The position numbers and the translations under genes were made by a program. From the NCBI RefSeq assembly GCF_058153355.1, contig NZ_CM177019.1: DNA of 64,000 nt; one strand, 5' to 3'. Below, one piece after another: positions 48,048-49,173 of the stretch. Positions within the stretch are counted from its first letter, which is position 1. Each line of letters begins with the position of its first letter. Below the pieces are notes generated by a model. That model was not told where the DNA came from and made no database searches. It saw only the letters and a list, made by a program, of their open reading frames with translations.

Positions 48048-49173
48048 ATTGCTTCACCAGCAGCGTCAGCACTTCATAGTGCGCGGTGTGCGGGAACATA
48101 TCAAAAAGCTGTACCCGTTCAATACGATAACCTGACAATTCGCGGATATCTTTGGCCATCGTTTGGGCGTTACAGCTGGAGTAGATGATAAAACGCGGTG
48201 CCATCGTTGAAAGATAATCACACAGCGGTTTACCAATGCCGCGGCGCGGCGGGTTAACCAGCACCAGCTCCGGCACCTCCCCCTGAGCGGTGGCAAACTG
48301 AGTGGAGTCCAGCGCCTGAAATTGCAAACGCGTTAAGCCCAGTTCAGCAGCTGACTGCTTCGCACAGGCAATGGCCTCTGGCGCAATTTCGATCCCGGTT
48401 AACTGCATGTCAGGCGTCGCGCAGTGTAAACCAAAGCCGCCCACGCCACAGAACAGATCCCACATATGTTTAACCGGCAACTGTCGTACCCAGTCGCGCG
48501 CAGTAGCGTACAGCTGGCTGGCGACCACCGGATTAGTCTGGAAGAAACTTTGTGGACGGATCCACAGCGGCACATCGTTAAAACGCTCAGCCAGCGCCTG
48601 TTGTTCGCTCAGATAAATCTCCGTCTCCCCTTCCATAATCGCCATATGTACCGGCTGAATATTGACGGTAATAACTTTCAGCTGCGGTAATTGTTCCTGT
48701 AACCACGGCAGCGCCTTACGCATTTGCGCCAGTTTGGTATCAGAACGCAGTACAAAACGCAGCATCATGCCGCCATCGCTCTGGCTTTCAGTCAGCAGAA
48801 TGTATTTCAGTTCACCACGCTTACGCGCCACGTTGTAAGGCGTTAAACCCGCACGGGCGATAAACGGTTTTAGCGCCGCAAAAACGGGCGCAAATGAGGC
48901 TGGATAAAGCGGGCAGTCACAAAGGTCTTCCGGTGTACCATCTCGATGCAGCATACCGAGCAGTGGTTTTTCAACGCTACCACTCACCACCATTTTAGCT
49001 TTATTACGAAACCCTTGTTCCGGGCCTGACACCGGCGCACACCATTCCTCAACCGGAAAATCAGCGAGCAGATTTTTAAGATCGGCGGTTTTAGCGGAGA
49101 GTTGCTCTGGAATCGGCTACGTTATCCACTGACAGGAACGACAGCGACCCGCGTCGTAAAGTGCGCACTGCAT
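48046..49173 (-). pseudogene. rlmC: 23S rRNA m5U747 methyltransferase RlmC with an in-frame amber codon at codon 19
   Basis: From ATG at 49173 the frame reads MQCALYDAGRCRSCQWIT then TAG (minus-strand codon at 49119-49117), then continues in frame [34 protein letters not shown]... to the normal stop; total frame length equals the 375-codon gene. Confidence 0.75.

Follow-up and report, generated by a model that had tools for sequence, protein, structure and literature searches.

The rlmC frame and its amber codon

The window analysed here is a stretch of 64,000 nucleotides. Its minus strand carries, at 48046–49173, the frame of rlmC (ybjF/rumB), which comprises 375 codons plus the stop and is broken at codon 19. 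The frame opens with the ATG at 49173–49171, reads MQCALYDAGRCRSCQWIT, reaches a TAG at 49119–49117 and then continues for 356 further RlmC codons to the TAA at 48048–48046. With the TAG at codon 19, the locus holds no uninterrupted full-length RlmC frame. The sequence and its comparisons demonstrate that codon 19 (49117–49119, minus strand) is CAG for Gln elsewhere in E. coli, and that the change is a single C-to-T transition in the coding strand. The base after the TAG is C, giving the stop signal UAG-C. A Dcm (CCWGG) deamination hotspot at codon 19 was considered and rejected; on reading, the sequence context AACGCAGCC contains no Dcm site.

The residual ORF in front of the TAG (49120–49173, minus strand) translates into 18 codons, MQCALYDAGRCRSCQWIT, and includes the codons for Cys3 (49165–49167), Cys11 (49141–49143) and Cys14 (49132–49134). 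Past the TAG, no in-frame ATG, GTG or TTG occurs before the GTG of codon 48, at 49032. This GTG opens a 328-residue ORF (48046–49032, minus strand), which the frame and a profile search identify as the longest rlmC ORF left beyond the TAG. This ORF keeps Cys87 (48913–48915), the methyltransferase domain and the codon for Cys334 (48172–48174), all on the minus strand.

The initial annotation, made from the sequence by itself, had placed an amber codon at codon 19 of rlmC, 49117–49119, and both the frame and the coordinates are exact. It gave Gln (CAG) for K-12 at codon 19, and CAG is indeed found there. The 18-residue peptide that it foresaw in the absence of suppression corresponds to the residual ORF of 18 codons. 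The same next start, GTG 49032, was recovered as codon 48, and a product from this GTG would lack the N-terminal Cys cluster as had been proposed, with Cys3, Cys11 and Cys14 all encoded upstream.

Neighbouring elements

The gene order potFGHI-ybjO-rlmC, convergent with artJ, is the same in K-12, E2348/69 and R32_14_1F. A GC-rich, terminator-like hairpin at 48023–48046 lies between the convergent rlmC and artJ and overlaps the rlmC stop codon. Since rlmC is followed by no other gene on its own strand, the nonsense mutation is non-polar. The spacer between artJ and rlmC (48018–48045) measures 28 bp, the length it also has in E2348/69 and 2020CK-00188, against about 174 bp in R32_14_1F and 198 bp in K-12. 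The difference looks like that of a REP-type intergenic element present in some strains and missing from others.

Between artM and artJ there is a copy of IS621 of 1,278 bp (45749–47026). Its transposase ORF, at 45854–46834 on the minus strand, encodes 326 residues and matches NF033542 with 253 bits. The element is a member of the IS110 family, of the bridge-RNA-guided recombinase type. The copy is 99.5% identical to one in E. coli 2017-02-2CC, and R32_14_1F has the site without the element. The draft contigs of the same clone, described below, end beside IS621. Elsewhere in the window, a gene between ybjQ and ybjP (39691–41460, minus strand) encodes a pentapeptide-repeat protein of 589 residues; R32_14_1F has an annotated copy, from which this one differs at 8 residues.

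Translation start, family and cysteines

With Gln at position 19, the RlmC translation matches NCBIfam TIGR02085 with 731.4 bits, residues 2–374 aligning to profile positions 1–374. TIGR02085 is an NCBIfam equivalog for RlmC, the 23S rRNA (uracil747-C5) methyltransferase, with a cut-off of 429.5 bits. The 328-residue ORF scores 654 bits against the same profile, its match beginning at profile position 49; the N-terminal 48 residues thus add about 77 bits. A Shine-Dalgarno-like GAAGG (49181–49185, minus strand) was read in the sequence 7 nt upstream of ATG 49173 and supports this ATG as the genuine start. The equivalent ATG is annotated as the rlmC start in K-12 and in RefSeq genomes.

The cysteines point in the same direction. 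In RumA (RlmD), the paralogue of RlmC, the Fe4S4 cluster is held by Cys81, Cys87, Cys90 and Cys161/162 (PMC2528175, PMC5614603). Alignment of K-12 RlmC with RumA pairs Cys11, Cys14 and Cys87 with RumA Cys87, Cys90 and Cys162, and places Cys334 on the SCNP motif of RumA. The cysteine pairs are the same in the alignment to the Pyrococcus abyssi enzyme 2JJQ. From the alignment to RumA we infer that RlmC itself would hold an Fe4S4 cluster. The codons for Cys3, Cys11, Cys14, Cys87 and Cys334 are all kept in this rlmC allele, and the TAG cuts off three of the four presumed cluster ligands, Cys3, Cys11 and Cys14, from the remainder of the protein. For RumA, the cluster is reported to be important in folding, stability and water-mediated RNA contacts, but not in the chemistry (PMC2528175, PMC5614603).

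Because the N-terminal cysteines align to the Fe4S4 ligands of RumA, the rlmC start is to be placed upstream of the TAG. A true start downstream of codon 19, the circumstance in which the reading of the initial annotation would fall, is ruled out by the TIGR02085 alignment from residue 2; the start annotated in K-12 and RefSeq, the GAAGG that precedes the ATG and the RumA cysteine alignment also speak against it. Judged by sequence and position, the locus is a member of the RlmC family, yet its frame is not intact.

The base in other genomes

CAG stands at codon 19 in all seven genomes compared (K-12, O157:H7 PV15-279, E2348/69, 2020CK-00188, R32_14_1F and two draft genomes). A 31-mer with the TAG in its middle, tried with CCG and with CTG as the following codon, occurs in none of 5,426 complete E. 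coli genomes; its CAG version occurs in 4,287 of the 5,426. A 61-bp query around codon 19 has at least one mismatch in each of 5,420 E. coli records, and none of the GTDB species representatives scanned has the rlmC TAG. Being absent from the complete E. coli genomes and the GTDB representatives, this in-frame stop is not kept across related lineages.

Two further assemblies contain the TAG. A Logan contig of SRR28786219, 4,948 bp in length, is 100% identical to window 47085–52032 with the TAG included, and gene callers predict the 328-residue truncated product on two to three Logan contigs. The NCBI draft GCA_015332025.1 (contig AAXEGZ010000023.1) was found by a look-up of the exact PotH protein of the window. 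Over window 47045–57558 (10.5 kb, 99.99% identity) it shows no mismatch and one 1-bp deletion; the TAG is present and no rlmC protein is called. The deletion lies in nfsA, at the equivalent of window position 56035 (position 1524 of the retrieved draft sequence). NfsA is likewise not called in this draft, and the nfsA of the window is intact. On account of its own nfsA deletion, GCA_015332025.1 is another isolate of this clone. The PotH look-up also gave three further lineages with the identical protein, two of which have an intact 375-residue RlmC with CAG, and in the third the contig stops before rlmC codon 19.

That the window departs at one base from every one of the 5,426 complete genomes would speak for a sequencing or assembly error. 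The identical base is nevertheless found in two assemblies from other read sets, one of which can be told apart as an isolate by an nfsA frameshift of its own, and the probability of such an error is practically negligible. These data show that the rlmC TAG is real and has been inherited by no fewer than three members of the clone, each sequenced independently. It falls within the conserved part of the coding sequence. The assembly error against which the initial annotation had cautioned is thereby set aside by the two independent assemblies, and the comparison with other strains that it had advised gives TAG in the two same-clone assemblies and CAG elsewhere.

Age of the mutation and strain background

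The rlmC allele differs from that of R32_14_1F by 34 synonymous and 9 non-synonymous changes, the stop counted among the latter. Among eight rlmC alleles, the only residues unique to this clone are Q19* and L151M. Secondary decay of rlmC is absent: the TAG is its one lesion, with no additional stop, no frameshift and no surplus of non-synonymous changes. This absence fits a very young pseudogene and is no proof of lost function. Exact look-ups for an intact ancestor of this very allele, with Gln19 alone or with Gln19 and Leu151 together, gave no match.

The window is DNA of E. coli. The best complete E. coli genome is 98.5% identical to it over 24 kb, and the exact protein matches of the window carry E. 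coli names. The window is a recombination mosaic. Positions 53250–61000 are almost identical to R32_14_1F, potFGHI (50250–53250) is 5–7% divergent from it, and 48580–49070 is about 8% divergent. In the last of these blocks, in the 5′ third of rlmC, the E. coli allele is of the B2 type and 98.4% identical to E2348/69.

Two other origins of the lesion were considered and rejected. Import of the stop with foreign DNA does not agree with the divergent block 48580–49070, which is a B2-type E. coli allele and leaves the TAG outside. A Shigella-like genome decay was considered for the lack of any complete E. coli genome above 98.5% identity and for the presence of an IS element; every other gene of the window (about 55) is intact, and the exact protein matches are named E. 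coli. The pattern is that of one isolated young nonsense mutation, not of genome decay.

Expression of the allele

Whether the amber codon abolishes RlmC depends on what the ribosome does at the TAG and beyond it. A leaky allele, with near-cognate readthrough at UAG-C, most plausibly by tRNA-Gln, would make a little full-length and essentially wild-type RlmC, sufficient for the methylation of a substantial share of the ribosomes, and would be hypomorphic and not null. We hold this to be quite unlikely. With C following the TAG, the signal is UAGC, a tetranucleotide described as a weak stop; in the same paper, however, amber kis74 led solely to truncated product where RF1 was wild-type (PMC2680264). 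Insertion of Gln would restore the wild-type RlmC, and an rRNA methyltransferase may suffice in small amounts. The remainder of rlmC bears no further lesion, which speaks for a leaky allele but is equally expected of a young pseudogene, and the TAG is conserved in no other lineage. It is extremely improbable that an amber suppressor tRNA of the supE or supF type, elsewhere in the genome, gives appreciable rlmC expression. The sole tRNA in the 64-kb window is a tRNA-Ser with the normal GGA anticodon, and no other gene of the window contains an internal TAG. In natural isolates, strong amber suppressors are seldom found, as they extend the many proteins that end with TAG.

Translation may also restart behind the TAG, at GTG codon 48 or at Met61, to give an N-terminally truncated RlmC that is still an active m5U747 methyltransferase. 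The 328-residue ORF retains the whole methyltransferase domain, with its 654 bits against TIGR02085, and a GAGGA is located upstream of GTG codon 48. The spacing of 13 nt between this GAGGA and the GTG is poor, however, and the GTG is 84 nt past the TAG, too far for efficient re-initiation. The homologues RlmCD and TrmA function without an Fe-S cluster (PMC5614603, PMC2528175), yet such cluster-less homologues have a helix in place of the region and not a deletion (PMC5614603). The truncated protein would be without three of the four RumA-aligned cysteines, and RumA reportedly requires the cluster for its folding and stability (PMC2528175). An active truncated enzyme is therefore very improbable.

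Proposed consequence

The explanation that a recent C-to-T change turned Gln19 into an amber codon, leaving little or no active RlmC and a young pseudogene in one clone, is very probably correct as a whole. A spontaneous, recent transition at the root of a single E. coli clone would have converted the CAG of Gln19 to the amber codon. RF1 would stop translation at the UAG once 18 residues are made. About 1.07 kb of rlmC mRNA would then be left untranslated, and the poorly placed GTG of codon 48 would yield little or no product.

RlmC makes m5U747 (PMC3241648). With little or no active RlmC, the clone would have 23S rRNA without m5U747. The sequence makes a loss or near-loss of m5U747 in the clone the most likely outcome, and it is reasonable to expect the deficiency, as the initial annotation did, unless a suppressor is present. 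The cost would be small as rlmC is dispensable. Knockout phenotypes are mild for the E. coli rRNA methyltransferases of the RlmC class (PMC7056703). Separately, Materials and Methods of that paper give the delta-rlmC strain as JW2756 and the delta-rlmD strain as JW0843, which look swapped by gene order (rlmC is b0859, rlmD is b2785); the phenotypes assigned to rlmC in PMC7056703 may be those of rlmD.

The locus should be annotated as a pseudogene, not as a 328-residue methyltransferase from GTG codon 48. The nonsense allele is an ordinary recent knockout and no departure from known biology.

Comparison with known alleles

The locus agrees with E. coli K-12 RlmC (YbjF/RumB, b0859) in its position ybjO-rlmC-artJ, its start codon and its length of 375 codons. 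The residues are identical at 365 of 375 positions, and the four N-terminal and central cysteines and the Cys334 codon are present. Unlike K-12 RlmC, it has TAG for CAG at codon 19, in addition to nine ordinary allelic substitutions.

In other E. coli and Shigella assemblies, truncation or frameshift has struck RlmC independently, with products of 351, 367 and 261 residues. The 351- and 367-residue forms are altered C-terminally, the latter having an out-of-frame tail and residing on a 4.8-Mb chromosome. The 261-residue form is truncated N-terminally and occurs on 21 contigs. These independent disrupted products indicate that rlmC is lost sporadically and repeatedly in E. coli. The present allele and the other disrupted alleles share the same dispensable gene in scattered lineages, whereas their lesions and positions differ. 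The lesion at codon 19 is the earliest in the gene among them and is found only in this clone.

Amber alleles are familiar from the laboratory, and include rpoS(Am) in K-12 derivatives. The kis74(Am) allele likewise arises from a CAG-to-TAG change and leads to a truncated product in the presence of wild-type RF1 and without a suppressor (PMC2680264). The rpoS(Am) and kis74(Am) alleles were studied where the suppressor status is known; rlmC, by comparison, has no selectable phenotype.

Is the loss of RlmC adaptive?

The loss of RlmC could be adaptive and not neutral: exposure to macrolides or ketolides, for instance, might have favoured cells without m5U747. We regard this as quite improbable. 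In Streptococcus pneumoniae, RlmCD loss lowers telithromycin susceptibility (PMC4605293), and in Haemophilus parainfluenzae an RlmC substitution arose in long-term azithromycin treatment (PMC9927455). The nfsA frameshift in the sister isolate GCA_015332025.1 hints at antibiotic exposure of the clone. Loss of nfsA is a classic first step towards nitrofuran resistance. If the loss were adaptive, the clone would be a natural, field-selected E. coli without m5U747, and the lack of this methyl group in hairpin 35 of the exit tunnel might shift macrolide or ketolide susceptibility or nascent-chain sensing.

Read as a young pseudogene, the allele sets one E. coli clone apart and is a natural probable rlmC null. 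It may serve as a lineage marker, and the strain as a control in m5U747 studies. Its wider significance is small; it is an example of the sporadic loss of non-essential rRNA modification genes in E. coli.
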